Source: Acidimicrobiia bacterium
Lineage (GTDB): Bacteria > Actinomycetota > Acidimicrobiia > IMCC26256 > PALSA-610
DNA length: 64,000 nucleotides
NCBI GenBank assembly: GCA_036501845.1
Contig: DASXZO010000036.1
Coordinates: 90,318 to 154,317, forward strand
Direction: 5' to 3'
Below the pieces are notes generated by a model, which was given only the letters and a program-made list of their open reading frames with translations, ran no database searches and was not told the origin of the DNA. The position numbers and the translations under genes were made by a program. This document shows positions 2,673 to 27,999 of this stretch, in pieces (positions within the stretch are counted from its first letter, which is position 1; each line of letters opens with the position of its first letter).

Positions 2673-4115
2673 CTACTCGTCCGGGCTGGTGGGTGGTACG
2701 GACGGATCGGACTGCTTCGCCGGACGTACATACTGCTCGCGCGCGACCCGTGCAGGCACGCCTCGCACGAGCGCGCCGGGCGGCACGTCGCCCGTGACCA
2801 CCGCGCCGGCCGCGGTGGTGGCGTCGTCGCCGATCTTCACGGGCGCCACGATCGTGGAGTTCGAGCCGGTAAACACCCGGTCGCCGACGGTGGTGTGGTG
2901 CTTGTTGGCACCGTCATAATTCGCAAAGACGGTGCCCGCACCGATGTTCGACCCGGCGCCGATCGTCACGTCGCCGAGGTAGGCGAGATGGTTCGCCTTG
3001 GCGCCCTCGCCGAGCTCGGCGTTCTTGGTCTCGACGAAATCGCCGAGGTGCACACCCGCACCGAGGCGGGTGCCGGCGCGCAGGTGGGCGAAGGGCCCGA
3101 CGAGGCACTCGTCGCCGACCTCGGCCTCACGCACCACCGAGCTCTGGATCACCACGTCGCAGCCGACCACAGAATCGACGATCCGCGTGTACGGCCCGAT
3201 CACCGAGCCCGCCCCCACACGCGTGCGGCCTTCGAGCATCGTGCCGGGGAGCAATCGCACGTCGGCCTCGAGCTCCACCGTGGCATCGACGTAGGTGGAC
3301 GCGGGATCGACGATCGACACGCCCTCGCGCATCCAGCGCAGGTTGATGCGCTCGCGCAACACCGCCTCGGCCGACGCGAGCTGCGCGTGGTCGTTGACGC
3401 CAAGCGCCTCGGTGGCCACCGACGCCACGCTGGCGACCACGCGGTGACCGGCGCCGCGCAACACCTCGATGGCATCGGTGAGGTAGTACTCGCCTTGCGC
3501 GTTCGACGACGTGATGCGGCGCAGCGCGGGCGCCAGCAAATTGCGCTTGAAGCAGTAGATCGACGTGTTGATCTCGTTGATCGCGAGTTCTTCTGGCGTG
3601 GCGTCGGCGTCTTCGACGATTCGGGCCACGTGGCCGTCGCGGTCGCGCACCACGCGCCCCAACCCGGTGGGGTCGTCGAGCTCGGCGGTGAGAATTGCCG
3701 CAGCCGCGTCCTCGTCACGCTGGGCTCGAGCGAGCGCGGCGAGCGTCTCGGGGAGGAGCAGCGGCTGGTCGCCGGCGAGCACGATCACGTCGTCTTCGCG
3801 GTCGGGGTCGTCGAAGTGCGCCGCGGTGAGGGCCACGGTGACCGCGTCGCCGGTGCCGCGCGGCACGGTCTGTTCGATGAACTCCACCGGCATCGAGTCG
3901 GGGAGCTGCGGTGCCAGCGCGCTGCGCACCGCGTCGGCGCCGCGACCGACGACCACGATCACGCGCTCGAGCGGCAGCGCCGATAGCGAGTCGACCACGT
4001 GGAGCACCATCGGCTTGCCACACAGCGTGTGCAGCACCTTCGGTGTGCGCGACCGCATGCGCGTGCCGTCGCCCGCGGCGAGCACGATCGCCGAGATCGG
4101 GCGGTACGGGCTCAC
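2673..4115 (-). CDS. glmU: bifunctional UDP-N-acetylglucosamine pyrophosphorylase / GlcN-1-P acetyltransferase
   Basis: Track ORF 2673..4208. AIVLAAGDGTRMRS is the nucleotidyltransferase motif, and hexapeptide repeats fill the C-terminal half. I place the start at GTG 4115, preceded by GGGAGGAA. ATG 4208 would sit 10 nt from the tRNA and adds an implausible N-terminus. Confidence 0.9.
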   Translation of the reverse strand: MSPYRPISAIVLAAGDGTRMRSRTPKVLHTLCGKPMVLHVVDSLSALPLERVIVVVGRGADAVRSALAPQLPDSMPVEFIEQTVPRGTGDAVTVALTAAHFDDPDREDDVIVLAGDQPLLLPETLAALARAQRDEDAAAAILTAELDDPTGLGRVVRDRDGHVARIVEDADATPEELAINEINTSIYCFKRNLLAPALRRITSSNAQGEYYLTDAIEVLRGAGHRVVASVASVATEALGVNDHAQLASAEAVLRERINLRWMREGVSIVDPASTYVDATVELEADVRLLPGTMLEGRTRVGAGSVIGPYTRIVDSVVGCDVVIQSSVVREAEVGDECLVGPFAHLRAGTRLGAGVHLGDFVETKNAELGEGAKANHLAYLGDVTIGAGSNIGAGTVFANYDGANKHHTTVGDRVFTGSNSTIVAPVKIGDDATTAAGAVVTGDVPPGALVRGVPARVAREQYVRPAKQSDPSVPPTSPDE

Positions 4116-4218: not shown

Positions 4219-4290
4219 CTCGGGGGCAGGGATTCGAACCCCGACCTGCGGGTACCAAAAACCCGTGTGCTGCCGTTACACCACCCCCGA
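4219..4290 (-). tRNA. tRNA-Gln (anticodon UUG)
   Basis: Reverse strand: TCGGGGGTGGTGTAACGGCAGCACACGGGTTTTTGGTACCCGCAGGTCGGGGTTCGAATCCCTGCCCCCGAG. Acceptor stem is TCGGGGG/CCCCCGA. Anticodon stem is CGGGT/ACCCG with loop TTTTGGT (anticodon TTG). The T-loop is TTCGAAT. CCA is not encoded. Confidence 0.9.
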
Positions 4291-11894: not shown

Positions 11895-13037
11895 TCAGTC
11901 GTCGCCAGGGTTGTCCGCGCCGAGTGCCGGTGGCCGGCGACGCACGGTCGCAGGCGTGCGCGCGAGGCGCAGCGGCGAGCGGATCGACGGGAACACGCCC
12001 GCGTCGTCATGCAGCTCCACCACCGGCTCGACGCCGAGCGCGGTGGCGAGTTCCACCGCCTCGGCGACGCTGTTGATCCCGCCGGCAGGCACTCCGGCTC
12101 GCGTCAGCTCGGGTACCCAGTGCGCGCGAGGTCGGGCCACGAACGCGGCGCGCAGCACCGGGTCGAGCTCGTCACGGTGCGCCACCCGCGCGCCGTTGGT
12201 GGCGAAGCGATCATCGGCCGCGAGGTCAGGTCGTTCGAGCACGCTGGCGATCGCCGCGAATTGGCGGTCGTTGCCGCACGCCACGATGAAGTCGCCGTCG
12301 GCAGCCGGGTACACGCCATAGGGAACGATCGACGGATGATCGTTGCCGAGGCGCGTCGGGTTCTGGCCGGCGAGGAGATAGCCGCTCATCTGGTTCACGA
12401 GCGCGGCGAGCGCGCAGTCGAGCAGCGACACCTCGAGGTGCTGCCCGCGACCGCTGCGCTCACGCTCCTGCAACGCGGCGAGCACACCAATGGTGACGTA
12501 CAGCGAGCAGAGCACGTCGACCGCGGCGACACCGACCTTGGTGGGTGGGCCGTCGGCGTCGCCGGTGATACTCATCAAGCCGCTCGCGCCTTGCACGAGC
12601 AGGTCGTAGCCGGGCAGCTCCCGCGCCGCCGGCGTGGAGCCGAAGCCAGTGATCGTGCACACCACGAGACGCGGGTGGCGCGCCACGAGGTCGGCGGGAT
12701 CCATCCCCCAACGCGCCATCGTTCCAGGCTTGAAGTTCTCGACGAGCACGTCGGCGCCGTCGAGCATCGCAAGGATCGGCGCGCGGCCTTCGGGCGTCGT
12801 GAGGTCGGCAGTGATGGATCGCTTGTTGCGGTTCGTCGCCTGGAAGTAGGTGCTGGTGCCGTCCACGAACGGCGGTCCCCAGGTGCGCGTGTCGTCACCG
12901 ACGTGAGGACGCTCGATCTTGACGACGTCGGCTCCAAGATCGCCGAGGATCATCGTGGCGTGCGGGCCGGCGAGCACTCGTGACAGATCGACCACGGTGA
13001 TGCCATCCAGCGCACCAGGAGTGGGCGCCTCGGCCAT
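11895..13037 (-). CDS. family III CoA-transferase (CaiB/BaiF)
   Basis: Track ORF of 380 aa. LDGITVVDLSRVLAGPHATMILGDLGADVVKIERP...GDDTR.WGPP is the classic N-terminal signature. Confidence 0.9.
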   Translation of the reverse strand: MAEAPTPGALDGITVVDLSRVLAGPHATMILGDLGADVVKIERPHVGDDTRTWGPPFVDGTSTYFQATNRNKRSITADLTTPEGRAPILAMLDGADVLVENFKPGTMARWGMDPADLVARHPRLVVCTITGFGSTPAARELPGYDLLVQGASGLMSITGDADGPPTKVGVAAVDVLCSLYVTIGVLAALQERERSGRGQHLEVSLLDCALAALVNQMSGYLLAGQNPTRLGNDHPSIVPYGVYPAADGDFIVACGNDRQFAAIASVLERPDLAADDRFATNGARVAHRDELDPVLRAAFVARPRAHWVPELTRAGVPAGGINSVAEAVELATALGVEPVVELHDDAGVFPSIRSPLRLARTPATVRRRPPALGADNPGDD

Positions 13038-13299
13038 CGCGGTAGTTCAGCATGCGAGCCGACGTGCTGCGGGCTCCTCGCCCAGGAGGCCCGCAGCCGC
13101 GTCGTTCAACTCGAGCTTGGCCCCACGCTGCGACGCGATGCGGGGGGAGACGCCGCGATGCGCAGGGCCATGCGGAGATCTTGCCCCGGGCACGTAACGG
13201 GTGCGTGACCTGGCGGCGAACAACACGTGTCGCTCACACGACGTCTCGACCGCGCCGTGTGGCTCGGCGCGAGACTCGCTGAGACGAGTGTTGTGGAAG

Positions 13300-13386
13300 G
13301 GGCGCGGCGAGCGGAGCAGCCCGGGAGCGACGAAGGAGTGACCCGGGTGCGCAGTGAGCTCGCCGCCGAGCGCAGCGAGGCAAATG
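13300..13386 (+). repeat. 87-nt conserved leader element, copy 1 (ends at the surE start codon)
   Basis: GGGCGCGGCGAGCGGAGCAGCCCGGGAGCGACGAAGGAGTGACCCGGGTGCGCAGTGAGCTCGCCGCCGAGCGCAGCGAGGCAAATG. It is 80/87 identical to 27161..27247. Predicted helices are GCGGCGAGC/GCUCGCCGC and GCA(G)CCCGGG/CCCGGGUGC. Confidence 0.85.
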
Positions 13387-14259
13387 GACATGCGCATTTT
13401 GATCACCAATGACGACGGGATCGAGTCGGAGGGGCTGCACGTGTTGGCCCGCGCGATCGCCAAGGCCGGGCACGACACGGTGGTCGTGGCACCCAACTCC
13501 GACCGCAGCGGGGTGGGCGCAGCGCTCGGTCTCGTACACGCTGACCAGCACCTCGACGCCCGTCGGGTGGAGGTCGTCGATCTCGACGTGCCCGCCTACG
13601 CGCTCGACGGTCCTCCGGGAATGTGTGTGGTTGCCGCCCGCCTCGGGGCGTTCGGCGATCCGCCCGAGCTCGTCGTGTCGGGCATCAATGCCGGCCTCAA
13701 CACCGGACGGTCGATCCTGCACTCCGGAACGGTGGGTGCCTGCCTCACCGCGCAGAACTTCGGCATCTCCGGGCTCGCGGTGAGCGTCGACGCCGATCGC
13801 GAGACCGGGCAGTGGCCGTGGACGATCGCGGCCGACCTCGCGGTGGATGTGCTCGATCGTTTCGCCGACGCACCGCCGCGCACGGTGATCAATCTCAACG
13901 TGCCCGGGCGCGCGCCGGTGCTCGGCGTGCGCTGGGCGCGCCTCGCCGCGTTCGGCGCGGCGCGCGCCGCAGTCGCCGAGACTCTTGACGGACGGCTGCA
14001 ATTCGAGTTGCAGGCCACCGGCGCCACGCCCGCGCCCGACTCCGACCAGGGAGTGGTGGAAGCCGGCTACGCGTCGATCACCACGATCATCGGCATCGCC
14101 GAGGCCTGGCCACCCGAGCTCGAAGGACCGACCACTGTGGAGGCACGCGTCGTGCCCGGCGCGCCGTTCGAAGCCGTGCACACCCTCCCCGACGCCTCAC
14201 TCCCCCGCTGGCTCCACCGCCCCCTCGCCGCCGCGAACCCGGTGGTCCCATCAGAATGA
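13384..14259 (+). CDS. surE: 5'/3'-nucleotidase SurE
   Basis: MDMRILITNDDGIESEGLHVLARAI...SGINAGLN are SurE signatures. ATG at 13384 or 13390. The track's GTG 13354 lies inside the repeat element. Confidence 0.9.
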   Translation: MDMRILITNDDGIESEGLHVLARAIAKAGHDTVVVAPNSDRSGVGAALGLVHADQHLDARRVEVVDLDVPAYALDGPPGMCVVAARLGAFGDPPELVVSGINAGLNTGRSILHSGTVGACLTAQNFGISGLAVSVDADRETGQWPWTIAADLAVDVLDRFADAPPRTVINLNVPGRAPVLGVRWARLAAFGAARAAVAETLDGRLQFELQATGATPAPDSDQGVVEAGYASITTIIGIAEAWPPELEGPTTVEARVVPGAPFEAVHTLPDASLPRWLHRPLAAANPVVPSE

Positions 14260-14313: not shown

Positions 14314-15012
14314 TCAGCCGAGACCGGCGGAGAGGAAGCGGTAGCCCATCCCGGGCTCGGTCACGAAGTACTTGGGGCGTGACGGCTCCGGTTCGAGCTT
14401 GCGGCGCAACGCGGCGAGGTACACGCGCAGATACTCGGTCTGGGTCTCGTAGCCAGGGCCCCATACCTCCTGCAGCAGCATCTTCTGGCTGACGAGGCGG
14501 CCCTCGTTGCGCACGAGCACCTCGAGCACGTGCCACTCGGTGGGCGTGAGGCGCACCGCCGCGCCGTCGCCGCGCTGCACCTGTTTTGCTGCGAGGTCCA
14601 CGACGAAATCCGCGGTGGCGATCGTCGGTTCGTCGTGACCGTCACTCGCCCGCCGCAACGCCGCCCGCACGCGCGCGAGGAGCTCGTCCATGCCGAACGG
14701 CTTGGTCACGTAGTCGTCGGCGCCGAGGTCGAGCGCCGCCACCTTCACGCGTTCCTCGTCGCGCGCCGACAGCACCACCACCGGCACCTTGCTCCAGCCC
14801 CGCAATGCTTCGAGCACGCGCACACCGTCGAGATCGGGAAGGCCGAGATCGAGCACGACGAGATCAGGGTGGGCACGCGCGGCCTGTTCGAGCCCCTTCG
14901 CACCGTCGGCCGCCACCACCACCTCGTAGCCGCGCGCTTCCAGGCTGATGCCGAGCGCGCGTGCGAAACGCTCCTCGTCGTCGACCACGAGGATCTTGGT
15001 GGTCACCTCCAC
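14314..15012 (-). CDS. kdpE: OmpR-family response regulator KdpE
   Basis: Track ORF of 232 aa. It has a receiver domain (ILVVDDE...DLGLPDLDG...KP) and a winged-helix output (GYRF). It lies immediately downstream of kdpD. Confidence 0.9.
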   Translation of the reverse strand: MEVTTKILVVDDEERFARALGISLEARGYEVVVAADGAKGLEQAARAHPDLVVLDLGLPDLDGVRVLEALRGWSKVPVVVLSARDEERVKVAALDLGADDYVTKPFGMDELLARVRAALRRASDGHDEPTIATADFVVDLAAKQVQRGDGAAVRLTPTEWHVLEVLVRNEGRLVSQKMLLQEVWGPGYETQTEYLRVYLAALRRKLEPEPSRPKYFVTEPGMGYRFLSAGLG

Positions 15013-15028
15013 CCCCGCTCGCAGGGAC

Positions 15029-17671
15029 TCACGCGCTCGCCTCGTGCGGCTCCGGGTGCACGGGCTCGGGCGGCTCGACGGGTTCGGGAACGGTCACCGG
15101 CGCGCCGATGGGCACGACCACCACCATCGTGGCCCCGCCACCTGGCGTGTCCTCGATACGCAGCTCACCGCCCATCGCCTCGATGAAGCCCTTGGCGACG
15201 GCGAGTCCGAGCCCCACGCCGAGGCCCGATGGCTGATCGCCGAGGCGCTGGAACGGGAGCACCACGCGCTCGCGCTCGCTCACCGGGATGCCGGGGCCAC
15301 GGTCGACGATCCGCAGATGCATGCGATCGCTGAGGGCCGCGACCTCGATGCGCACGGGCACACCCGGGGGCGTCCACCGCAGCGCGTTGCCGATCAGATT
15401 GGCGAGCACCCGCTCCAACAGCGCGGCGTCGATCGTCATCAACGGCAGACCTTCGGCGACGTCGACCGCCACCGCGTCCTGTGCCGGCCGCAGCGACGCC
15501 AGCGCCGAGCCCACGATCTCTTCCACGTCGACGATCTGGGGCCGCGTCGCGACCTCGCCCGAGCGCAGACGGCTCATGTCGAGCAGATTGCCGACGAGAT
15601 CGTTGAGCCGCGCGGCCTCGTCGTCGATCGTGCGCAGCAACTCCTCACGCGCGTCCTCGGGCCATTCCACGTCGGTGGCGAGCAGGCTCGTGGCCGCAGC
15701 GCGGATCGACGCGAGCGGGGTGCGCAGGTCGTGGCTCACCGCCGCGAGCAGCGCGTTGCGGAGCTCGTTGGCGCGGGCCTGCGCGATCGCCTGTTCGGCT
15801 TCGCGCTGCAACAGCCGGCGGTGGCGCGCGAGCGCGATCTGCGTGGTGAACGACGCGAGCACCTCGCGTTCCTCAGCCGTGAGGCCGCGGCCCGACCAGG
15901 CAAGGCATGCATCGCCCGGCACGTTGACGGCGAGCTCGGGATCGAACGAGGCGTCATCCAGCGCGTTGCCAGCCCCGTCGGCCGCGTCGCCGGCGATCGT
16001 GCTCGGCTCGCCGCCCGGAGCGCGGGCTTCCACGTGCCACGCGCCGTCGTCGCCGCGAGCGAGCACCCGCACGTTGTCGAACGCGAATGTCGAGCCGATC
16101 TGCTCGAGCAGGCGCGGCAGCGGATCGGGATCGTCCACGGTGATGCCGGCCATCGTCGCCAGCATGCGCGCCTCGGCACGCGCCTGGTAAGCCTCGGCGC
16201 GACGCCCGGCCGCAAGGTCGACGAGCACGCTCACCACGCCACCGATCACCAGGAAGGCAACGAGCGCGAGCACGTCACGACCGTTCGAGATCGTGAACGT
16301 GTGGATTGGTGGCGCGAAGTAGTAGTTGAGCAAGAGGAAGCCGAACACCGACGCAACGAGCGCCGGCAGCACACCGCCGATCGTCGCGATCAATACGACC
16401 GCGAGCAGGTAGCACAGGATCGCGTTCTGGAAACCGAGCGAGTGCCGCGCCGGGATGAGGCAGAGCGTGAGGAGGGGCAGGCCGACGACCGCCAGCACGA
16501 ACCCGGCGATGCGCCGTTTCCGGCCCACCGACACGAAGCGAGGCAGGCGGGTGAACGTGCGCACCTGCGCACCACCTTCGTCGGCGAGACTCGGGCTCGA
16601 GATCACGTGCACGTCGAGCCGCCCCCGCGCGTTACGGAGCAGCTTGCGCACCACCGAGCCGCGCCACATTTCAGTGACACGCGATTCGCGGCTCGCACCG
16701 AGCACCACCTGCGTGGCGTTCTCCGCAGTGGCGACATGCAGCAATGCATCGGCCACGTCGGTGCCCGTCACCTCCACGTAGCGGCCGCCCACCTCTTCGA
16801 GCAACGACACCCGCTGCGCGATTGTTTCCGCGTCACCGGCGTGGCCGGCCCGAAGGCCGTCGCTGCGCACCACGTGCACGCCGATGAGCTCGCCGTGGGC
16901 GCGGCGCGCCATGCGCGCAGCCCGGCGGATCAGGTCGTCGCCGCCCGGCGCGCCCGTAAGCGCAACCACCACGCGCTCCTTCGTCTCCCACGCGGTGTCG
17001 ATGTCGTGGCGCTCGCGGTAGTCGAGCAACGACGCGTCGACCTTGTCGGCGAGCCACAGGAGCGCGAGCTCGCGCAACGCGGTGAGGTTGCCGACGCGGA
17101 AGTAGTTGCCGAGCGCGGCGTCCACCTTGTCGGAGGCGTAGATGTTGCCGTGTGCCATGCGCCGACGCAGCGCCTCCGGCGTCTGGTCGATGAGCTCCAC
17201 CTGGTCGGCGCTCCGCACCACGCCGTCAGGCACCGTCTCCTGCTGATCGATGCCAGTGATCTGCTCGACCACGTCGTGGAGCGACTCGAGATGCTGGATG
17301 TTCACGGTGGAGATCACGTCGATGCCCGCGTCGAGCACCTCCACCACATCCTGCCAACGCTTCTCGTTGCGCGAGCCGGGCACGTTGGTGTGGGCGAGCT
17401 CGTCGATGAGCGCCACTGCGGGCTTGCGGGCGATCAGCGCGTCGACGTCCATCTCGTCGAACGACGTGCCGCGATACTCGAACCGTCGCCGCGGGACCAC
17501 GTCGAGCTCGCCGACCTGCGCGGCGGTGTTCGGCCGCGCGTGCGTCTCGACGTAGCCGACGACCACGTCGGTGCCGCGCGCGGCGCGCCGGCGACCTTCG
17601 TTGAGCATCGCGAACGTCTTGCCGACGCCGGGCGAGGCACCGAGATAGACGCGCAAGTGCCCTCGGGCCAC
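15029..17671 (-). CDS. kdpD: sensor histidine kinase KdpD
   Basis: Track ORF of 880 aa. It contains the N-terminal KdpD domain with P-loop GASPGVGKT, a Usp-like region, a DUF4118 TM block, a GAF-like region, the HisKA H-box (SHDLRTPL) and an HATPase domain. Confidence 0.95.
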   Translation of the reverse strand: MARGHLRVYLGASPGVGKTFAMLNEGRRRAARGTDVVVGYVETHARPNTAAQVGELDVVPRRRFEYRGTSFDEMDVDALIARKPAVALIDELAHTNVPGSRNEKRWQDVVEVLDAGIDVISTVNIQHLESLHDVVEQITGIDQQETVPDGVVRSADQVELIDQTPEALRRRMAHGNIYASDKVDAALGNYFRVGNLTALRELALLWLADKVDASLLDYRERHDIDTAWETKERVVVALTGAPGGDDLIRRAARMARRAHGELIGVHVVRSDGLRAGHAGDAETIAQRVSLLEEVGGRYVEVTGTDVADALLHVATAENATQVVLGASRESRVTEMWRGSVVRKLLRNARGRLDVHVISSPSLADEGGAQVRTFTRLPRFVSVGRKRRIAGFVLAVVGLPLLTLCLIPARHSLGFQNAILCYLLAVVLIATIGGVLPALVASVFGFLLLNYYFAPPIHTFTISNGRDVLALVAFLVIGGVVSVLVDLAAGRRAEAYQARAEARMLATMAGITVDDPDPLPRLLEQIGSTFAFDNVRVLARGDDGAWHVEARAPGGEPSTIAGDAADGAGNALDDASFDPELAVNVPGDACLAWSGRGLTAEEREVLASFTTQIALARHRRLLQREAEQAIAQARANELRNALLAAVSHDLRTPLASIRAAATSLLATDVEWPEDAREELLRTIDDEAARLNDLVGNLLDMSRLRSGEVATRPQIVDVEEIVGSALASLRPAQDAVAVDVAEGLPLMTIDAALLERVLANLIGNALRWTPPGVPVRIEVAALSDRMHLRIVDRGPGIPVSERERVVLPFQRLGDQPSGLGVGLGLAVAKGFIEAMGGELRIEDTPGGGATMVVVVPIGAPVTVPEPVEPPEPVHPEPHEASA

Positions 17672-17675
17672 GCTG

Positions 17676-18272
17676 CTATCCGAGCTTGTCGAGCGCGAGG
17701 TTCACATCGAGCACGTTGACAACCGGTTCGCCGATGAACCCGAGCGCACGATCAGACGTGTGCTGGTGGACGATTCCCATCACCTGCGCAAGCGTAAGGC
17801 CACGCGCCTTGGCCACCCGCGCTGCTTGGAGCCGGGCGTTTGCGGGCGAGATGTCGGGGTCGAGACCCGAGCCCGACGAGGTCACGGCGTCGACCGGCAC
17901 GGCGTAGTTCGCCGGCAGTCCGTTGAAGGCGCGGTACGCCTTGGCGTCGGCCTCCACCGCGGCCAGGAGCTTGGGGTTCGACGGCCCGAGGTTCGACGCG
18001 GCACTGCCGTTGGCGTTGTACGGCGAATCGAGCGAGTCGGATGGGCGCGGCTGGAAGTAGCGGGGTTCGGGGTTGCCCTTGGCGTCGACGAACTGCTGGC
18101 CGATGAGCGACGAGCCAACGACCGTGCCCGCCTTGTCCTTCACGAGCGAGCCGTTCGCCTCGTGGTTGAACAGCAGTTCGGACGCGCCCGTGACTGCGAG
18201 CGGATAGACGAGACCGAGCAAGACCGTGAGCGCGATCGTCATCAGCAGCCCGGTGACGAGCTGGCGTTGCAT
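17676..18272 (-). CDS. kdpC: K+-transporting ATPase subunit C
   Basis: Track ORF of 198 aa. It has an N-terminal TM segment and the SGSGLDP.ISP motif. It abuts the kdpB stop. Confidence 0.9.
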   Translation of the reverse strand: MQRQLVTGLLMTIALTVLLGLVYPLAVTGASELLFNHEANGSLVKDKAGTVVGSSLIGQQFVDAKGNPEPRYFQPRPSDSLDSPYNANGSAASNLGPSNPKLLAAVEADAKAYRAFNGLPANYAVPVDAVTSSGSGLDPDISPANARLQAARVAKARGLTLAQVMGIVHQHTSDRALGFIGEPVVNVLDVNLALDKLG

Positions 18273-20393
18273 CTACTTCACCCCCATCGCGCTGATGATG
18301 AGGTCGATCAGCTTGATGCCGACGAACGGGGCGACGATCCCGCCGGCGCCGTAGATCAGCAGGTTGCGCCGCAGGATCGCGGCCGCGCCCATCGCTCGGT
18401 ACTTCACGCCACGGAGCGCGAGTGGGATCAGCATCACGATGATCAGCGCGTTGAAGATGACCGCCGACAGGATCGCCGAGTGCGGGTTGTTGAGCCGCAT
18501 GATGTTGAGCGTCTTCAACTGCGGAAACACGCCCTGGAACATCGCCGGGATGATGGCGAAGTACTTGGCGATGTCGTTCGAGATCGAGAACGTGGTGAGC
18601 GACCCCCGTGTGATCAGCAACTGCTTGCCGATTTCGACGATCTCGATGAGTTTCGTGGGATTCGAGTCGAGGTCGACCATGTTGCCGGCCTCTTTGGCGG
18701 CCTGCGTGCCGGTGTTCATGGCCACGCCCACATCGGCTTGCGCGAGCGCGGGCGCGTCGTTCGTGCCGTCGCCGGTCATGGCCACGAGGAAGCCGCCCTG
18801 TTGCTCCTTCTTGATCAGGGCCATCTTGTCTTCGGGGGTGGCCTCCGCAAGGAAGTCGTCGACGCCGGCCTCGTCGGCGATTGCGCGCGCGGTGAGCGGG
18901 TTGTCGCCGGTGATCATGATCGTGCGGATGCCCATGCGGCGCATCTCGTCGAAGCGCTCGCGCATGCCCTGCTTCACCGTGTCCTTGAGGTGAATCACAC
19001 CGAGCACACGCGTACTGCCGTCGCGACCCTCGGCAACCGTCAGCGGCGTGCCGCCGTTCGTGGCAATGCCCTCCACGATCGGCGCGAGGTCGGGCGGCAC
19101 GTGGCCGCTCTGCTCCTCCACCCAGCGCTGTACTGAATCGGCCGCCCCCTTGCGAATCTCGCGATGTCCCACACCTGGGTCGTCGAAGTCGATGCCCGAC
19201 ATCCGGGTCTGCGCGGTGAACGCCACGAGCTCGGCGCCTTCGATCTCCTGGGACTGCAGGCCGTAACGCTCCTCGGCGAGCGTCACGATCGAACGGCCCT
19301 CGGGGGTTTCGTCGGCGAGGCTCGACAGCAACACGGTCTCGGCGAGCTCCTGCTCGCTCACGCCACCCACGGGGATGAACTCCGCAGCCATGCGGTTGCC
19401 GTAGGTGATCGTGCCGGTCTTGTCGAGCAGCAGCGTGCTGCAGTCGCCTGCAGCCTCGACCGCGCGACCGCTCATGGCGAGCACGTTGCGCTGCACGAGC
19501 CGGTCCATTCCGGCAATGCCGATCGCCGACAGGAGCGCACCGATCGTGGTGGGGATCAGGCACACGAGCAACGCGACCAGCACCGTGATCGATTGCTGCG
19601 CGTGCGAATAGATCGCGAAGGGCTGCAGCGTCACCACCGCGAGCAGGAAGATGATCGTGAGCCCCGCGAGCAAGATGTTGAGCGCGATCTCGTTCGGTGT
19701 CTTCTGCCGGCTCGCGCCCTCGACCAACGCGATCATGCGATCGAGGAAGGTCTCGCCCGGCTTCGAGCTCACCTGCACCACGATCTGGTCCGACAGCACC
19801 CGCGTGCCACCGGTGACCGAGCAGCGGTCACCGCCCGACTCGCGAATCACCGGCGCCGATTCACCGGTGATGGCCGACTCGTCGACCGACGCGATCCCTT
19901 CCACGATGTCGCCGTCGCCCGGGATGAGCTGGCCCGCGTCGACCACGCAGAGATCGCCCACCTGGAGCTGGGTCGACGGCGTCGCCTTCACCGACCCGTC
20001 GCTCTGACGTACGTAGGCAACGGTCTCCGAACGCGTCTTGCGCAGCGTGTCGGCCTGGGCCTTGCCGCGACCTTCGGCGACCGCCTCGGCAAAGTTGGCG
20101 AACAGCACGGTGAACCACAGCCATACCGCGACGAGTGCGGCAAAGCCGTCGGTGTCGCGAATCGCGAGAAACGTGGTGAGCACACTGCCGATCTCGACGA
20201 CGAACATCACCGGATTGCGCGCCATCTGACGCGGATCGAGCTTGATCAACGCGTCGATCACGGCGCGCCGCACGATCTTCGGCTCGAACATCGACGCCGA
20301 CTTGCGCTTCGAATGCGAGCCGATTGCCGCCTGGTCGGCAGCCGGCGCTTCGGGGACCTCTTCGAGTGTGGTCTCGGTTGCCATCTCGCTCAC
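18273..20393 (-). CDS. kdpB: K+-transporting P-type ATPase subunit B
   Basis: Track ORF of 706 aa. The phosphorylation site DKTGTIT, MITGDN and [12 protein letters not shown] motifs are present. Confidence 0.95.
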
Positions 20394-20399
20394 CGACTC

Positions 20400-22112
20400 C
20401 TAGAACTTTCCGACGAGGTGCTCGACGATCGGCCCCAGCGCGACCACCGGGAAGAACGTGAGCCCCACCACAACGATCACCACGCCCACGAGGAGGGCGC
20501 TGAACAGGGCGGTGCCAGTGGGGAACGTGCCCGCCGAAGCCGGCACCGGTTGCTTGCGGCCCAGTGAGCCGGCGATCGCGAGCACGGGGATCATCAACAG
20601 GTAGCGACCCACGAGCATGCAGATGCCGAGCGTGGTGTTGAACCATTGCGTGTTGCCGTTGAGGCCACCGAACGCGGACCCGTTGTTGTTCGACGCGCTC
20701 GTGAACGCGTACGTCATCTCGGTGAGGCCGTGCGGTCCGGTATTGCCGAGTGACGACGTGGCGGTTTTGAGCACGATCGAGATGCCGGCGAACACGAGGA
20801 TCGCGAGCGGCACCACGAGGATGTAGAGCACGACAAGCTTCATCTCGGCGGCTTGGATCTTCTTGCCGAGATACTCCGGTGTGCGGCCGACCATCAGGCC
20901 CGCGATGAACACGCTCAGCAGCGCGAAGATCAGCATGCCGTAGAGCCCCGACCCGGTGCCGCCGGGGTCGACCTCGCCGAACATCATGTTCACGAGCGCG
21001 GTACCGCCGCCGAGTGGGGTGAGGCTGTCGTGCGCGCAGTTGACCGCGCCGGTCGAAGTGCCTGTCGTGCTGGCGACGAACACACCGCAGCCCTGCGAAC
21101 CGAGCCGGGTCTCCTTGCCCTCCATGTTGCCGCCGCCCGAGTTCGCGCTCGTGGTCGACTGGGTGACCTGCGCGCTCGCGATCTTCGGGCTGCCGCGGCT
21201 CTCGAACGTCATCACCAGCGCCGCCGACGCGATCCAGAGCAGGAACATCGCTGCCAGCACCACCCAGCCCTGGCGCATGTCGCCCACGAGCTTGCCGAAC
21301 ATGAACGGGAACGAGAACGGGATGGCGAGCAGCAGCCAGATCTCGAGCACGTTGGTGAGGCCGTTCGGGTTCTCGTAGGGATGTGCCGAGTTGGCGTTGA
21401 GCGGGCCGCCGCCGTTCTCGCCGATCTCCTTGATGGCTTCCTGACTCGCGATCGGTCCCTGGGTGATTGTTTGGGTCTGGCCCGTGACCGTGTTGACCTT
21501 CTGCGGCGAGTGGAAGTTCTGGATCGCGCCCTGGCTGACGAGCACCAGCGCGAACACGAATGCCAGCGGCAGCAGCACTCGCGTGCACGTGCACACCAAG
21601 TCGACCCAGAAGTTGCCGATCGTGTTCGAACGCGTGCGGACGAGTCCGCGAATGAGCGCCACCGCGACCGCGGCGCCGGCCGCCGCCGACACGAAGTTGT
21701 GGAACGCGAGCCCGGCCATTTGCGTGAGATGGCTCACCGTGAGCTCGGGCACGTAGTTCTGCCAGTTCGTGTTCGTGAGGAAGCTCACCGCGGTGTTGAA
21801 CGACAGTCCGGCGGGCACCGCGCTCTGGTTCGCCGGGTTCAACGGCAGAAGGTTCTGCACACGCAACTGCGCGTAGAGGATCAGCACCGACACCGCGCTG
21901 AACGCAAGCAGCGAGAGCGCGTACACGTTCCAGCGCTGCTCCCGCTCCGCATCGACACCAGTGACGCGATAGATCGCGCGGTCGATGGGGCCGAACACCC
22001 GGTCGCCGGGCGCAGGACCGTTGGCGTACACCTTGGCGAGATACGTGCCGAGCAGCGGCGTCGACACTGCAAGCAGCGCGACGATCAGCAGCAGCTGGAG
22101 CCAACCACTCAT
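20400..22112 (-). CDS. kdpA: K+-transporting ATPase subunit A
   Basis: Track ORF 20400..22247. The KdpA N-terminus MSGWLQLLLIVALLAVSTPLLGTYLAKVY begins at ATG 22112, which overlaps the kdpF stop (ATGA). Confidence 0.9.
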   Translation of the reverse strand: MSGWLQLLLIVALLAVSTPLLGTYLAKVYANGPAPGDRVFGPIDRAIYRVTGVDAEREQRWNVYALSLLAFSAVSVLILYAQLRVQNLLPLNPANQSAVPAGLSFNTAVSFLTNTNWQNYVPELTVSHLTQMAGLAFHNFVSAAAGAAVAVALIRGLVRTRSNTIGNFWVDLVCTCTRVLLPLAFVFALVLVSQGAIQNFHSPQKVNTVTGQTQTITQGPIASQEAIKEIGENGGGPLNANSAHPYENPNGLTNVLEIWLLLAIPFSFPFMFGKLVGDMRQGWVVLAAMFLLWIASAALVMTFESRGSPKIASAQVTQSTTSANSGGGNMEGKETRLGSQGCGVFVASTTGTSTGAVNCAHDSLTPLGGGTALVNMMFGEVDPGGTGSGLYGMLIFALLSVFIAGLMVGRTPEYLGKKIQAAEMKLVVLYILVVPLAILVFAGISIVLKTATSSLGNTGPHGLTEMTYAFTSASNNNGSAFGGLNGNTQWFNTTLGICMLVGRYLLMIPVLAIAGSLGRKQPVPASAGTFPTGTALFSALLVGVVIVVVGLTFFPVVALGPIVEHLVGKF

Positions 22113-22201
22113 CAGAGCTTCTCTGGCGCGATCAGCGCGAACACGAGGTACGCGGCCACGAGGATCGACAGGATCAGTCCGAGCGCGTTGTCGTAACTCA
22201 T
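22112..22201 (-). CDS. kdpF: K+-transporting ATPase subunit F (29 aa)
   Basis: MSYDNALGLILSILVAAYLVFALIAPEKL is a single TM helix with the typical KdpF ending (..L..PEK.). It is embedded in a spurious longer track ORF (22112..22411). Confidence 0.8.
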   Translation of the reverse strand: MSYDNALGLILSILVAAYLVFALIAPEKL

Positions 22202-22395
22202 GACCCCGCCCCGACCACGACGGGGTCGCTGCCGTTGCCGTGGCCATCCGACTCCGCGGGCACCGCGTCGGGCTCGCGCCCGCTCACCACCGTGGCGGTT
22301 TCGTCGGGTCCGATGATCTTGTCGCACGCATGCACAAACAAGGTGGCGAGCGCGAAGAACGCCACGATGATCGCTACGTACACGATGTCGGCCAC
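22198..22395 (-). CDS. 65-aa single-TM protein translationally coupled to kdpF
   Basis: Track ORF reading (GTG)ADIVYVAIIVAFFALATLFVHACDKIIGPDETATVVSGREPDAVPAESDGHGNGSDPVVVGAGS. Third codon positions are GC-rich. GAAAGGGG lies upstream of the GTG. Its stop overlaps the kdpF ATG (ATGA). Confidence 0.55.
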   Translation of the reverse strand: MADIVYVAIIVAFFALATLFVHACDKIIGPDETATVVSGREPDAVPAESDGHGNGSDPVVVGAGS

Positions 22396-22407
22396 AAGAG
22401 GCCCCTT

Positions 22408-23148
22408 TCACCTGTCGTTCGATTGGCCCGCGAGCACGATTCCGAGCTCGTCGGCAAGCGTCACTGCCACGCGGCGCTGCTCCGCGGACGCGTGCGACTC
22501 GTCGCCGGGCTGCAACAGGAGCCGGCCGAGCTCGCGGCCACCTCCGAACACCGGGAGGGCCAGGCCGTTGCGGGGCAGCGCGAAGCCGTCGCCGTCGAAG
22601 CGCAGCACTGTTCCGGTGAGCGCGCCGCGCCGGCCGAGCTGGGCCGTCGTGAGTTCAGACGACCACGACGTTCGGTCGTCGCCGTCGTTGGGCGCGGCCA
22701 CGAACACGCAATCGTCGAGTGCGAGCATGCCGATGAGCTCGGCGCGCACCGCCGACACGATGTCTTCGCGCTCGGCACCTTGCGCGGCCAGCTCGGCCAC
22801 GCGGAAGAGCCGCTGCAGCTCGTTGCGCGCCGCTCGCGCGTTCCGTTCGACGCGGCGCGATCTGAGCCCGACCTCGGCGGTGATCAACGCGACCACCACG
22901 AAGAGCACGAGCGTGACCACGTCGGAGCCACTGTTGATCTTCAGCGACTGGTACGGGATGGTGAAGAAGAAGTCGAACACCATCGCCGCGATCACTGCGC
23001 CCGCCGCTCCGGCCCACCTTCCGCCGATCACGGCGGCTGCGAGCACGGGCAGCACCAACACGAGCGCCACGTTGGCGTTGTGGATGTGATCGCGGAACGG
23101 CACGAGGGCGACCGCCACCAAGAAGGCACCCGCGGCGCCGGCGGTCAC
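22408..23148 (-). CDS. kinase-less KdpD-like sensor core (DUF4118 TM block + GAF-like domain); start uncertain
   Basis: This is part of track ORF 22408..23409. VIGGRWAGAAGAVIAAMVFDFFFTIPYQSLKI is the DUF4118 hallmark. It is followed by a coiled region and a GAF-like segment collinear with the middle of KdpD (15029..17671). HisKA and HATPase domains are absent. GTG starts are possible at 23148 (GAGG upstream) or 23196. Confidence 0.7.
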   Translation of the reverse strand: MTAGAAGAFLVAVALVPFRDHIHNANVALVLVLPVLAAAVIGGRWAGAAGAVIAAMVFDFFFTIPYQSLKINSGSDVVTLVLFVVVALITAEVGLRSRRVERNARAARNELQRLFRVAELAAQGAEREDIVSAVRAELIGMLALDDCVFVAAPNDGDDRTSWSSELTTAQLGRRGALTGTVLRFDGDGFALPRNGLALPVFGGGRELGRLLLQPGDESHASAEQRRVAVTLADELGIVLAGQSNDR

Positions 23149-23312
23149 ACCGGCTACCTCACGACCGACGCTCTCCGCACGTCGCCACGTAGTCACGATT
23201 CGGTTGTACGACGCGCTCAGCCGTTTTCCATCCGGCTTTACGGCGAATTGACGGCGCCGAACGGCGTTTTTGCGCGACCTACACGCGCGTCGCGCCGCGA
23301 CAGGCCGTGGGG

Positions 23313-24347
23313 CTACACGTTGAAGCGGATCTCGAGCGTGTCGCCGTCGAGCACTTCGTATTCCTTGCCCTCGAGGCGGATCTTGCCCTGTTCCTTGGCC
23401 TTGGCCCACGAGCCGATCGTGAGCAGCTCGTCCCAGCGGATCACTTCGGCGCGGATGAATCCGCGCTGCAGGTCGCTATGGATCACGCCGGCGCATTCGG
23501 GCGCCTTGGCGCCGGCGCGGAAGGTCCACGCGCGCGATTCCTTGTCGCCGGTGGTGAGGAACGTGCGCCGTCCGAGCGCGTGGTAGGCCGCGCGAGCCAG
23601 GCGCGGGAGCACGCTCTCACCGATGCCGAATGTCTCGAGCATCTCGGGTCGGTCTTCGGGCGCGCACGACGCGATCTCGGCTTCGATCTCGATCGCCACC
23701 GCCAGCGCGTCGGCGCCGAACGGCGCCGCGATCGCGTCGGCGTCGCCGAGCTGCGACTCGTCGATTCCGAGCACCAGGAGCATCGACTTGTTCGTGAGCA
23801 GGAAGCACGGCACGAGCTGCGCGCGCACGTCGGCATCGAGGTCGCTCCGGAAGATCGGCACGCCGTCGCCAAGCGCGGCGTGGGCGCGCTCGAGCGCCGC
23901 CACTTCGGCCACGATCGCCTTGTCGCCGCTCTTGGCGGCGCGCCGCTGCTTGTCGAGCCGCTGTTCGACGGTCGCGAGGTCGGCCACCACCAGCTCGAGC
24001 TCGAGGCCTTCGAGATCGCCGCGCGGGTCGGCCGGACCGATCGCGCCGTCGTGGGCCCGCACCACGAAGCAGATCGCGTCGCAGTTCCGCAGTTCGCCGA
24101 GGAACTTCGCACCGAGGCCCTCCCCCGGCTTCGAACCCGGCGGGAGCGCGATATGGGCAAGCTGGAACCCGGTCGGCACCACTTTCTTCGATGCCGACAT
24201 CACCGCGAGCTGCGCGAGCCGCTCGTCGGCCACGTGCGCGATGCCCAGCGCCTTTTCGAACACGCCCGGGTCGGGCAGCCCGGTGAGCGCGCTGAACAAC
24301 AGGTTCGATCCCGCGTCCGACCAGCCGACGAGTCCGACGTTCTCCAT
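23313..24347 (-). CDS. YchF/OLA1-like protein with degenerate nucleotide-binding motifs
   Basis: Track ORF of 344 aa. The C-terminal TGS-type region is well conserved (RAWTFRAGAKAPECAGVIHSDLQRGFIRAEV...EGKEYEVLDGDTLEIRFNV). The N-terminal G-motifs differ from canonical YchF, e.g. GLVGWSDAGSNLLFSALT versus G.VGLPNVGKSTLFNALT. Confidence 0.8.
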   Translation of the reverse strand: MENVGLVGWSDAGSNLLFSALTGLPDPGVFEKALGIAHVADERLAQLAVMSASKKVVPTGFQLAHIALPPGSKPGEGLGAKFLGELRNCDAICFVVRAHDGAIGPADPRGDLEGLELELVVADLATVEQRLDKQRRAAKSGDKAIVAEVAALERAHAALGDGVPIFRSDLDADVRAQLVPCFLLTNKSMLLVLGIDESQLGDADAIAAPFGADALAVAIEIEAEIASCAPEDRPEMLETFGIGESVLPRLARAAYHALGRRTFLTTGDKESRAWTFRAGAKAPECAGVIHSDLQRGFIRAEVIRWDELLTIGSWAKAKEQGKIRLEGKEYEVLDGDTLEIRFNV

Positions 24348-26351: not shown

Positions 26352-27125
26352 ATGCCCGACGAACGCTGGCTCGACGGCAAGGTGGCGTTGATCACCGGTT
26401 CGGGGTCCGGCCAGGGCCGCGCTGCGGCGGTGCTGTTCGCACGGCACGGCGCACGCGTCGCGGTGATCGACATCAACGACGAAGGCGCGTCCGAGACCGT
26501 CAAGATGGTCGAATCGGCGGGCGGCGAGTCGTTCGCGATGCATGCCGACGTGTCGGAGCGCGACGAGTGCAACCGCATGGTCGCCACCACGATGGAGCGC
26601 CTCGGCCGGCTCGACGTGATCTACAACAACGCCGCGGTGCAGATGTCGGGGCGGCTCGTCGAATGCAGCGAAGCCGATTGGGATCTCACGATCGCCACGA
26701 ACCTCTCGGCCATCTTCTGGGCATGCCGGGCCGCGATCCCGGCGATGCTCGAGGGTGACGGCGGCTCGATCATCAACACTGCGTCCACCCTCGGACTGAT
26801 CGGCAGCGAGGGCTACGCCGCGTACGGCGCGGCCAAGGCCGGTCTGGTGGCGCTCACGAAACAGATCGCCACCGAGTACGGCCCGACGATCCGCGCCAAC
26901 GTGATCGCGCCTGGATCGATCGACACACCGCGTTTTCGCAAGGTGCTCACGGGGATCGACAACGTCGACGAGTTCCTCACGATGCTCACGTCGAACATGC
27001 CGATGCGGAGGCTCGGCACGGCCGACGACATTGCGAACGCAGCACTGTTCCTCGCGAGCGACCGCTCGGCCTACACGAGCGGTGCCATCGTGCCGGTCGA
27101 CGGCGGACTGAGCGCATTGAGATGA
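26352..27125 (+). CDS. SDR-family oxidoreductase
   Basis: Track ORF of 257 aa. The cofactor motif is LITGSGSGQGRA, followed by NNAA, with catalytic Y..AYGAAK. Confidence 0.9.
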   Translation: MPDERWLDGKVALITGSGSGQGRAAAVLFARHGARVAVIDINDEGASETVKMVESAGGESFAMHADVSERDECNRMVATTMERLGRLDVIYNNAAVQMSGRLVECSEADWDLTIATNLSAIFWACRAAIPAMLEGDGGSIINTASTLGLIGSEGYAAYGAAKAGLVALTKQIATEYGPTIRANVIAPGSIDTPRFRKVLTGIDNVDEFLTMLTSNMPMRRLGTADDIANAALFLASDRSAYTSGAIVPVDGGLSALR

Positions 27126-27160
27126 ACCGCTCATTCGGCACAGCTCGATTGCTCCCGTTC

Positions 27161-27247
27161 GGGCGCGGCGATCGGAGCAGCACGGGAGCGACGGAGGAGC
27201 GACACGTGTGCGCAGTGAGCTCGCCGCCGAGCGCAGCGAGGCCAATG
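27161..27247 (+). repeat. 87-nt conserved leader element, copy 2 (ends at the SDR start codon)
   Basis: GGGCGCGGCGATCGGAGCAGCACGGGAGCGACGGAGGAGCGACACGTGTGCGCAGTGAGCTCGCCGCCGAGCGCAGCGAGGCCAATG differs from copy 1 at 7 positions. Positions 22 and 47 covary (C-G becomes A-U) within the predicted inner helix. Confidence 0.85.
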
Positions 27248-27999
27248 TGATTGCGATTGTGACGGGTGGCGCGTCGGGGTTGGGCGAGGCGGTTGCTCGG
27301 CGGCTCGCGAGCGACGGTGCCACGGTGGTGGTGGCCGACATCGACGAGCGCGCCGGTCAGCAGGTGGCCGACAACCTCAAGGCCGCGGGCTTCGCGGTGG
27401 AGGCCGAGACCGTCGACGTCACCGACGAAGGCGAGGTCGCGGCGATGGTGGATGCGGTCGTCGAGCGCCACGGCCGCGTCGACGTGCTCGTGTGCAGCGC
27501 CGCGATCGAGGTGCGCGCGTCGGTGGTCGAATGCAGCGACGACGACTGGCAGCGCGTCATCGACGTGAACCTCAAGGGTCCGTTCCTCTGCATGAAGCAC
27601 GCCATCCCGCACATCGCCGCGGCCGGTGGCGGTTCGGTAGTGATCATGAGCTCCGTGCTCGGCGCGATCGGCTCGCCCGGATACGCGGCCTACTGCGCGT
27701 CGAAGGGCGCGCTCAACAACCTCGCCAAGCAGGCCGCGATCGAGCACGCGCCCGAAGGCGTGCGGGTGAACGTGATCTCGCCGTCGGCCACCGACACCGG
27801 TCTATTCATGAAGATGGCCGAGAGCACCGGCGACCCGAAGCGCATCATCGACATGGTCACGCGCAACTCTCCGATGCGGCGGCTCGGCACCGGCGCCGAG
27901 GTTGCCGACACCGTGGCGTTCCTGTGCTCGCCGGGCGCGGCATACATCTCGGGCACGATCATCCCGCTCGACGGCGGCCTCGCAGCCCGCCGCCCGTGA
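27247..27999 (+). CDS. SDR-family oxidoreductase
   Basis: (GTG)IAIVTGGASGLGEAVARRL..., with catalytic YAAYCASK. The track start GTG 27208 would add 13 codons taken from the repeat element. Confidence 0.85.
   Translation: MIAIVTGGASGLGEAVARRLASDGATVVVADIDERAGQQVADNLKAAGFAVEAETVDVTDEGEVAAMVDAVVERHGRVDVLVCSAAIEVRASVVECSDDDWQRVIDVNLKGPFLCMKHAIPHIAAAGGGSVVIMSSVLGAIGSPGYAAYCASKGALNNLAKQAAIEHAPEGVRVNVISPSATDTGLFMKMAESTGDPKRIIDMVTRNSPMRRLGTGAEVADTVAFLCSPGAAYISGTIIPLDGGLAARRP

Follow-up and report, generated by a model that had tools for sequence, protein, structure and literature searches.

A MIRU/REP-like structured intergenic repeat family in uncultured Acidimicrobiia

The duplicated element and its surroundings

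The window (the whole stretch of 64,000 nucleotides that was analysed) contains two copies of a short element, referred to as copies A and B, in different genetic settings (Table 1). Copy A occupies the spacer that separates surE from a divergently oriented family III CoA-transferase gene, and copy B is flanked by two SDR genes of the same direction. The pairwise comparison of positions 13300-13386 and 27161-27247 returned 80/87 identity, with mismatches at element positions 12, 22, 34, 40, 44, 47 and 83, and the sequence 3' of copy A was unrelated to that 3' of copy B. The duplicate with unrelated flanks that had been described in a first-pass annotation of this DNA was therefore recomputed with the same figures. 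Approximately 33-35 nt near the 3' end of the two copies were free of any mismatch, and the 33-mer common to both occurred twice in the window, with zero occurrences expected (100 shuffles). The originally proposed extent of 87 nt was confirmed for the core, except for its 5' edge. The repeat reaches at least approximately 12-17 nt beyond that edge, as the motif ..AACCGGTTC/GGGCGCGG is common to independent sites. The conserved core measures approximately 87-100 nt, or approximately 120-140 nt when the variable 5' leader is included.

Several other features were recorded in the vicinity. A complete kdpFABC-kdpDE potassium-uptake cluster (14314-24000, minus strand) lies directly downstream of surE, and a tRNA gene was found at 4219-4290 (minus strand). 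Within the CoA-transferase/surE spacer, a non-coding block at 13113-13239 (TGGCCCCAC..GCGATGCGGGGGGAGACGCCGC..CGCAGGGCCATG..GTGAC..GAACAACRCGTGTCG) was nearly invariant in six orthologous spacers, in a comparison across which the synonymous sites of surE are near saturation. RNAalifold placed a TGGCCC/GGGCCA stem around a GC hairpin in this block, with almost no covariation, and a comparison of the block with Rfam gave no match. Either of the divergent genes may have its promoter/operator or a leader RNA here. An inverted repeat, GACGTCTCG...CGAGAC(T), occupies 13240-13283, just 5' of copy A, and is conserved in relatives. Since it is kept in the element-free locus L170 as well, it belongs to the flank and not to the repeat.

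Table 1. Features of the two copies and their neighbourhood, and the sites of the repeat family (window positions unless another locus, labelled L, is named)
Feature	Position	Strand	Basis or remark
Family III CoA-transferase gene, upstream, divergent	11895..13037	-	Pfam
Copy A, probable 5' extension, boundary uncertain	13283..13298	+	partial conservation 5' of GGGCGCGG at independent sites; comparison with element-free L170
Copy A, core as modelled	13299..13385	+	covariance model R1, 99.6 bits, E=3.9e-17
P1 5' arm, GCGGCGAGC	13304..13312	+	perfect 9-nt inverted repeat with 13358-13366
P2 5' arm, GCA(G)CCCGGG	13316..13325	+	covariation, 12 copies
Purine-rich loop, 16 nt, GAGCGA-N5-GAGYGA	13326..13341	+	conserved in alignments A2/A3; AAGGAG here, GGAGGAG in most other copies
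P2 3' arm, CCCGGGTGC	13342..13350	+	covariation, 12 copies
P1 3' arm, GCTCGCCGC	13358..13366	+	pairs with 13304-13312
3' tail, CGAGCGCAGCGAGGCAAAT	13367..13385	+	SD-like GCGAGG at 13375-13380
surE (5'/3'-nucleotidase)	13390..14259	+	start conserved in orthologues, 13390; JGI call, 13384
Upstream SDR gene	26352..27125	+	Pfam
Left ATGA, upstream SDR stop codon overlapping an ATG	27122..27125	+	single ATGA in empty L173, L175, L176
Bridging open frame, 42 codons	27122..27250	+	upstream ATGA to downstream GTGA
Copy B 5' leader, fast-evolving, upstream stop codon to core	27126..27159	+	approximately 30% diverged from L177; indels relative to L024
Copy B, core	27160..27246	+	covariance model R1, 107.3 bits, E=1.2e-18
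Right junction, ATGTGA	27245..27250	+	downstream SDR GTG (27247) overlaps bridging-frame TGA; orthologue L024, ATATGA
Downstream SDR gene	27247..27999	+	GTG start at 27247
Site 1	immediately 5' of surE		window, L166, L167/L168, L171, L172
Site 2	SDR-SDR junction		window, L177, L024
Site 3	argR-argG (argR to argG)		L011; Pfam
Site 4	GNAT gene / convergent LysR-type gene		L039; Pfam
Site 5	dienelactone hydrolase (DLH) gene / convergent Crp-type gene		L043; Pfam
Site 6	3' of surE		L170
Site 7	L171 272-359, L172 1209-1297		second copy, CoA-transferase/surE spacer
Site 8, possible, degenerate	after ychF, L174 280-358	-	22.5 bits, borderline

Copies, sites and junctions

The family to which the two copies belong numbers approximately 14 members, spread over 8-9 different intergenic sites and at least seven related Acidimicrobiia genomes or contigs, which answers the suggestion in the first-pass annotation that further copies be sought. 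A search of the GTDB species, each represented by one genome, for the 22-mer GCTCGCCGCCGAGCGCAGCGAG returned 43 loci, 39 of which were chance coding matches. The remaining four were all in the MAG OY970315.1, with similarity spanning the whole element, and this core 22-mer scan of the GTDB species genomes revealed no copy outside OY970315.1. The MAG holds at least four exact-core copies in 4.6 Mb, and the window two copies in 64 kb. Further copies were obtained from the surE and SDR neighbourhoods of relatives (L166, L167/L168, L170, two in L171, two in L172, and L177). The nhmmer profile and covariance model R1 recovered the same set, with copies scoring 52-108 bits under the covariance model compared to at most 31 bits for the best decoy loci, which contain the exact 20-22-mer core. 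When both were applied to approximately 200 kb of DNA from the lineage, a single borderline copy was gained with the covariance model, that of L174, which is degenerate, subfamily-2-like and located 32 nt past the ychF stop codon. A metagenome scan with the 20-mer GAGCTCGCCGCCGAGCGCAG returned at least 120 loci, and all those listed matched coding sequence by chance (LAAERSE-type). Plasmid and phage collections gave no BLASTN match to the element. Neither did Rfam contain a relevant match at the gathering score or at E<=10, in line with the earlier remark that the element was not recognised as a known riboswitch class. As far as we could see, the family is restricted to one clade of uncultured soil Acidimicrobiia. 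SurE homologues assign the window itself to uncultured Acidimicrobiia, its source contig being JGI 3300036780 Ga0376652_0000603.

The copies are found in very short gaps at gene boundaries, and the genes that follow them (surE, SDR, argG) are functionally unrelated. The orientation of the element, wherever informative, was sense with a flanking gene. This applied to every one of the three or four sites with co-directional neighbours, and five sites were outside operons. Two copies (L039 and L043) take up the entire spacer between convergent genes and directly adjoin the stop codon of the convergent gene, which shows that the element does not depend on a start codon after it. The members at sites 6 to 8 make up a second subfamily, marked by another tail, CGCCGGACGAAGTAGGCGCCA, that L172a and L170b (L170 10937-11027) have in common. 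The second spacer copy of L171 and L172 lies approximately 200 nt 5' of the copy next to surE and has no counterpart in the window. At the surE site of GCA_036489985.1 (L166 602-749), the element is interrupted. Its first unit carries an 11-nt core deletion and has its own ..CGAGGCAAAG end, and a partial second unit with a normal tail follows approximately 30 nt further on, giving a 1.5-unit tandem reminiscent of MIRU arrays.

Filled and empty alleles were found at the SDR-SDR junction. It was empty, with the two genes overlapping by 4 nt (ATGA), in L173, L175/L176 and the P0123 contig, in which the downstream SDR is 96%, 89% and 90% identical, respectively; the empty junction of L173 reads ...CTGCGATGAATGGG.... 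Approximately 120 nt were present exactly there in the window, L177 (97% SDR identity) and L024. Copy B of the window has ATGAA at its left and ATGTGA at its right. L024 reads GCGATGAA/.../AAATATGAAC, that is, GCG ATGAA / element / AAAT ATGAA CACC, and the argR-argG insert of L011 is bracketed by ATGA (CTATGA/.../GCATGAAG). An exact ATGA/ATGAA duplication was hence present at two independent sites, SDR-SDR in OY970315.1 and argR-argG, and was not evident at L043. Selection for restored coupling could give the same pattern. The tree of the flanking SDR gene did not sort filled from empty alleles, the empty L173 being closest to the filled L177, which implies repeated insertion at the junction or several losses. 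The surE site of L170 lacks the element and retains a residual AGGCGGCGACGCAC; as this may be a deletion scar, it was not counted as a clean empty site. In L174, a 52-nt spacer between two SDR genes (3949-4000) contains GGGGCGCGAGCCGACGGCGAGCGG, possibly an element remnant. Of the three options left by the first-pass annotation, the evidence favours the genome-specific mobile leader, on account of the filled and empty alleles, the ATGA duplicated at the junctions and the 8-9 unrelated insertion sites.

Synonymous sites diverge much faster than orthologous copies of the element. The copies at the surE site were 79-90% identical, compared to 52-65% for the fourfold-degenerate sites of surE, and the cores at the SDR site were 95-98% identical, compared to 60-67% for fourfold sites. 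The core of copy B matched that of L177 at 85/87 positions and that of L024 at 82/86.

Hairpin, tail and bridging frames

The fold proposed in the first-pass annotation consists of two nested helices, P1 and P2, closing a loop. It is GC-rich and takes up the 5' two-thirds of the element. P1 was verified as a perfect 9-bp inverted repeat, and both helices were supported across the 12 copies aligned. The outer six P1 pairs were invariant. P2 pairs change compensatorily. For one of them, five copies have CG, four GC, two AU and one UA, and none has a mismatch; for a second, six copies have GC, four AU and one GU. The joint change of positions 22 and 47 from C-G to A-U, noted from the two window copies, was seen as well. 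In the 12-copy alignment, paired cells amounted to 84.7% versus 79.3% in column shuffles, and both-side-change cells to 13 versus 4.1; in each case 0/500 shuffles reached the observed value. When the 3' partner was slid by 1-3 columns, the pairing fell to 15-64%. The arm variants across copies included CCCGGG/CCCGGG, CACG/CGTG, CCGG/CCGG, CTTGG/CCGAG, GCGCA/TGCGT and CCCA/TGGG. The competing, switch-like hairpin (GCUCG-CCGC-CGAGC) that had also been proposed was not supported, as none of its pairs showed a two-sided change and it performed no better than shuffles. Single-sequence folding gave -41.6 kcal/mol for copy A (z = -2.05 versus shuffles) and -32.3 kcal/mol for copy B (z = +0.96). The predicted structure is backed by the comparison of copies, the folding energy being weak. 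G-U and A-C counts (8 versus 5) were uninformative as to the folding strand. No terminal inverted repeats were found; the inverted repeats (P1 and P2) are all internal, with neither end involved. The GGAGG of the loop is lost in three copies (L171b, L166 and L170b). The 8-mers GGAGCAGC, GGAGCGAC and GGAGTGAC recur with an 11-nt period inside the element (13313-13342 and the same positions of copy B), and GAGC-like motifs run on into the tail at roughly 11-nt spacing. This periodicity suggests an origin from a degenerate 11-mer array, or possibly one-face protein binding on the DNA.

The tail CGAGCGCAGCGAGGCAAAT was identical, save 1-2 positions near its 3' end, in 9/9 aligned subfamily-1 copies; L172b has one additional inserted G. 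The SD-like GCGAGG reported earlier was borne out, the tail being at Shine-Dalgarno distance from start codons. Where an abutting co-directional gene follows, GAGG is separated from the conserved start by 5-9 nt. The shortest spacing, 5 nt, is that of window copy B and L024; L011 has 6 nt, and the surE copies have 9 nt, counted to the surE start at 13390. The claim that both copies end exactly at the start codon was correct in part. Copy A does have an ATG (13384) at its end, which is also the surE start called by JGI, whereas the start conserved among surE orthologues (MRILITNDDG) is 6 nt further on (window 13384-13392). Copy B ends at the ATG at 27245, and the SDR gene begins at the overlapping junction with its GTG. 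In P0122, the NCBI annotation opens the SDR at a GTG inside the element (MRSELAAERSEAN...; window 27208-27249), and close orthologues of the downstream SDR differ in N-terminal length by up to approximately 9 codons.

Three of the four operon-internal copies contain an open frame across the element, of 42 codons in window copy B, 41 in L024 and 49 in L011. It starts on an ATG overlapping the upstream stop codon, and its terminal TGA overlaps the downstream start. L011 uses a different frame of the core, so what recurs is an open path and not a peptide. By rough estimates, the chance of such a frame is approximately 0.12 per site and p is approximately 0.02-0.05. As the frame is broken in the close relative L177 and its register relative to the core varies between sites, a bridging (coupling) ORF is suggestive only.

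Interpretation of the repeat

The closest published counterparts are the mycobacterial MIRUs (Supply et al. 1997, summarised in PMC3184786 and PMC12548453). These repeats of 40-100 bp occupy sites that can be filled or empty, come with tetranucleotide direct repeats, and have GC-rich inverted repeats inside them as well as ORFs that overlap the adjacent genes (PMC3184786); they insert at start codons with -4 coupling (PMC12548453). The element described here is likewise a short, GC-rich, intergenic, multi-copy repeat of an actinobacterial genome, and it lies sense with a flanking gene wherever its orientation is informative. It has filled and empty sites among relatives with a tetranucleotide on both sides when filled, GC-rich internal inverted repeats, in three copies a frame whose ends overlap the stop and start of the neighbours (-4 coupling, broken in L177), and occasional tandem or double copies (L166, L171 and L172). 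In contrast to MIRUs, its host belongs to the Acidimicrobiia and not to Mycobacterium, its copies are mostly single and do not form VNTR arrays, many of them are outside operons (divergent or convergent), and the bridging frame is not present in all. A covariation-supported nested hairpin combined with an invariant SD tail was not found stated for MIRUs in PMC3184786 or PMC12548453. Judged by these published descriptions, and not by sequence, the repeat appears to be the same kind of element as the MIRU, and we do not file it as one.

Other repeat systems share part of this architecture. Neisseria REP2 and Borrelia IR-A and IR-B are found upstream of unrelated genes and carry 5' stem-loops and, at the 3' end, a ribosome-binding site, along with a promoter and an ATG (PMC3184786). 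The stem-loops near the 5' end and the RBS at the 3' end beside a start codon are alike, although here the host gene provides the start codon, some copies are followed by no gene and the phyla differ; no sigma-70-like promoter was found on the element. MITEs resemble it in being small, non-coding, multi-copy and insertion-polymorphic with a short junction duplication, and differ from it in that the element lacks terminal inverted repeats. REP/REPIN (RAYT) and IS200/IS605-derived elements are hairpin-dependent extragenic imperfect palindromes with compensatory changes, orthologous persistence and precise empty alleles, as is the case here; the present repeat is set apart from them by a copy number that is low as far as counted and by its long, unpaired, conserved tail. 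A transposase or autonomous partner was not detected; the approximately 35 kb of Pfam-annotated flanks contained no transposase family and no RAYT/TnpA gene, and we know of no related full-length IS.

The element is unlikely to be a riboswitch-like leader. It is probably a small, non-autonomous, interspersed repeat of the MIRU/REP-like kind, located at gene boundaries and equipped with its own hairpin and ribosome-binding site. Such a repeat would spread by transposition into or right beside stop/start junctions and would be co-transcribed with its neighbours. After insertion, it would take over the translation initiation of the downstream gene, its tail serving as the ribosome-binding site, and the host would keep the tail because the downstream gene depends on it. 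The open frame in most operon-internal copies may lead ribosomes on from the upstream stop codon to the next start, which would preserve translational coupling despite the insertion. The hairpin would act either as a recognition feature for the mobilising enzyme or as a structure in the mRNA.

Another of the options in the first-pass annotation was a shared cis-regulatory RNA. Such an RNA would be a riboswitch or a protein- or ribosome-bound leader, in which P1/P2 and the loop would sense a signal and control translation; its copies would be kept or multiplied for wiring unrelated genes into one regulon. We consider this unlikely. The covariation of P2 fits such an RNA, though it is equally expected of hairpin-dependent mobile repeats, and no covariation was seen in the alternative hairpin. 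Conservation extends to the 16-nt loop (GAGCGA-N5-GAGCGA and GGAGG), yet GGAGG is missing from the three copies named above. The tail is at SD distance from five start codons, whereas the two convergent-gene copies abut a stop codon with no downstream start codon, and others are 95-210 nt away from any start codon. Orthologous copies do evolve far more slowly than fourfold sites; however, the downstream genes are unrelated, the SDR junction of close relatives works without the element, and Rfam offered no match even at E<=10.

It is similarly improbable that the element is a REP/REPIN-like extragenic palindrome at RNA 3' ends or in intercistronic positions, acting as a stabiliser, a processing site or a U-tract-less terminator, with the SD-like tail being incidental. 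The nested GC-rich palindrome of approximately 63 nt would suit this function, but the most conserved part of the element is the unpaired tail and not this palindrome. Five sites lie directly after the stop codon of a co-oriented gene, but the surE site has no upstream co-oriented gene to terminate or stabilise, and the element carries no U-tract and no terminator-like match. Long persistence at orthologous sites, which has been reported for REPINs, is shared. REP/REPIN elements are present in tens to hundreds of copies; at least four were counted here in 4.6 Mb by exact 22-mer, and two in the 64 kb of the window.

Since the conservation of the hairpin exceeds purely selfish need, there is room for an RNA-level function. 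We also weighed, as an unlikely reading, a selectively maintained RNA module, in which the hairpin with its GAGCGA-N5-GAGCGA/GGAGG loop and the invariant ribosome-binding tail would be bound by a specific protein or the ribosome and would have spread by transposition before unrelated genes. If true, the module would act as a mobile cassette for translational control, and the genes behind it would form a small Acidimicrobiia regulon.

A short protein-coding gene (a peptide of approximately 40 aa) or an N-terminal extension of the SDR (MRSELAAERSEAN, as annotated by NCBI in P0122) is very improbable and was rejected. Open frames do span the element in window copy B, L024 and L011, and an annotation pipeline did open the SDR at a GTG within it; however, L011 switches to another frame of the core than window copy B and L024, stop codons interrupt the frame in copy A and L177, indels and a 15-nt insertion alter the peptide, orthologous SDRs without the element have ordinary N-termini, and a six-frame peptide query against 5.8 billion proteins returned none at E<=1. 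Recent segmental duplication or chance GC-rich similarity with no family behind it, a scenario the first-pass annotation had allowed for and to which the window with its two copies might by itself have pointed, has a negligible probability and is refuted by the unrelated flanks, the further copies at 8-9 sites in at least seven genomes or contigs and the low scores (at most 31 bits) of decoys sharing an exact 20-22-mer.

What is new is a MIRU/REP-like structured intergenic repeat family in uncultured Acidimicrobiia, for which selective constraint and insertion polymorphism at ATGA junctions are well supported. The element misleads start-codon annotation and can be mistaken for a riboswitch candidate. 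To our knowledge, repeats that insert exactly at stop/start overlaps and keep the downstream translation have essentially been described only for the mycobacterial MIRUs. That this architecture recurs in another, uncultured class of Actinomycetota suggests that the strategy is more general, and the filled and empty junctions are a natural set for studying how coupling is kept or rebuilt after insertion.
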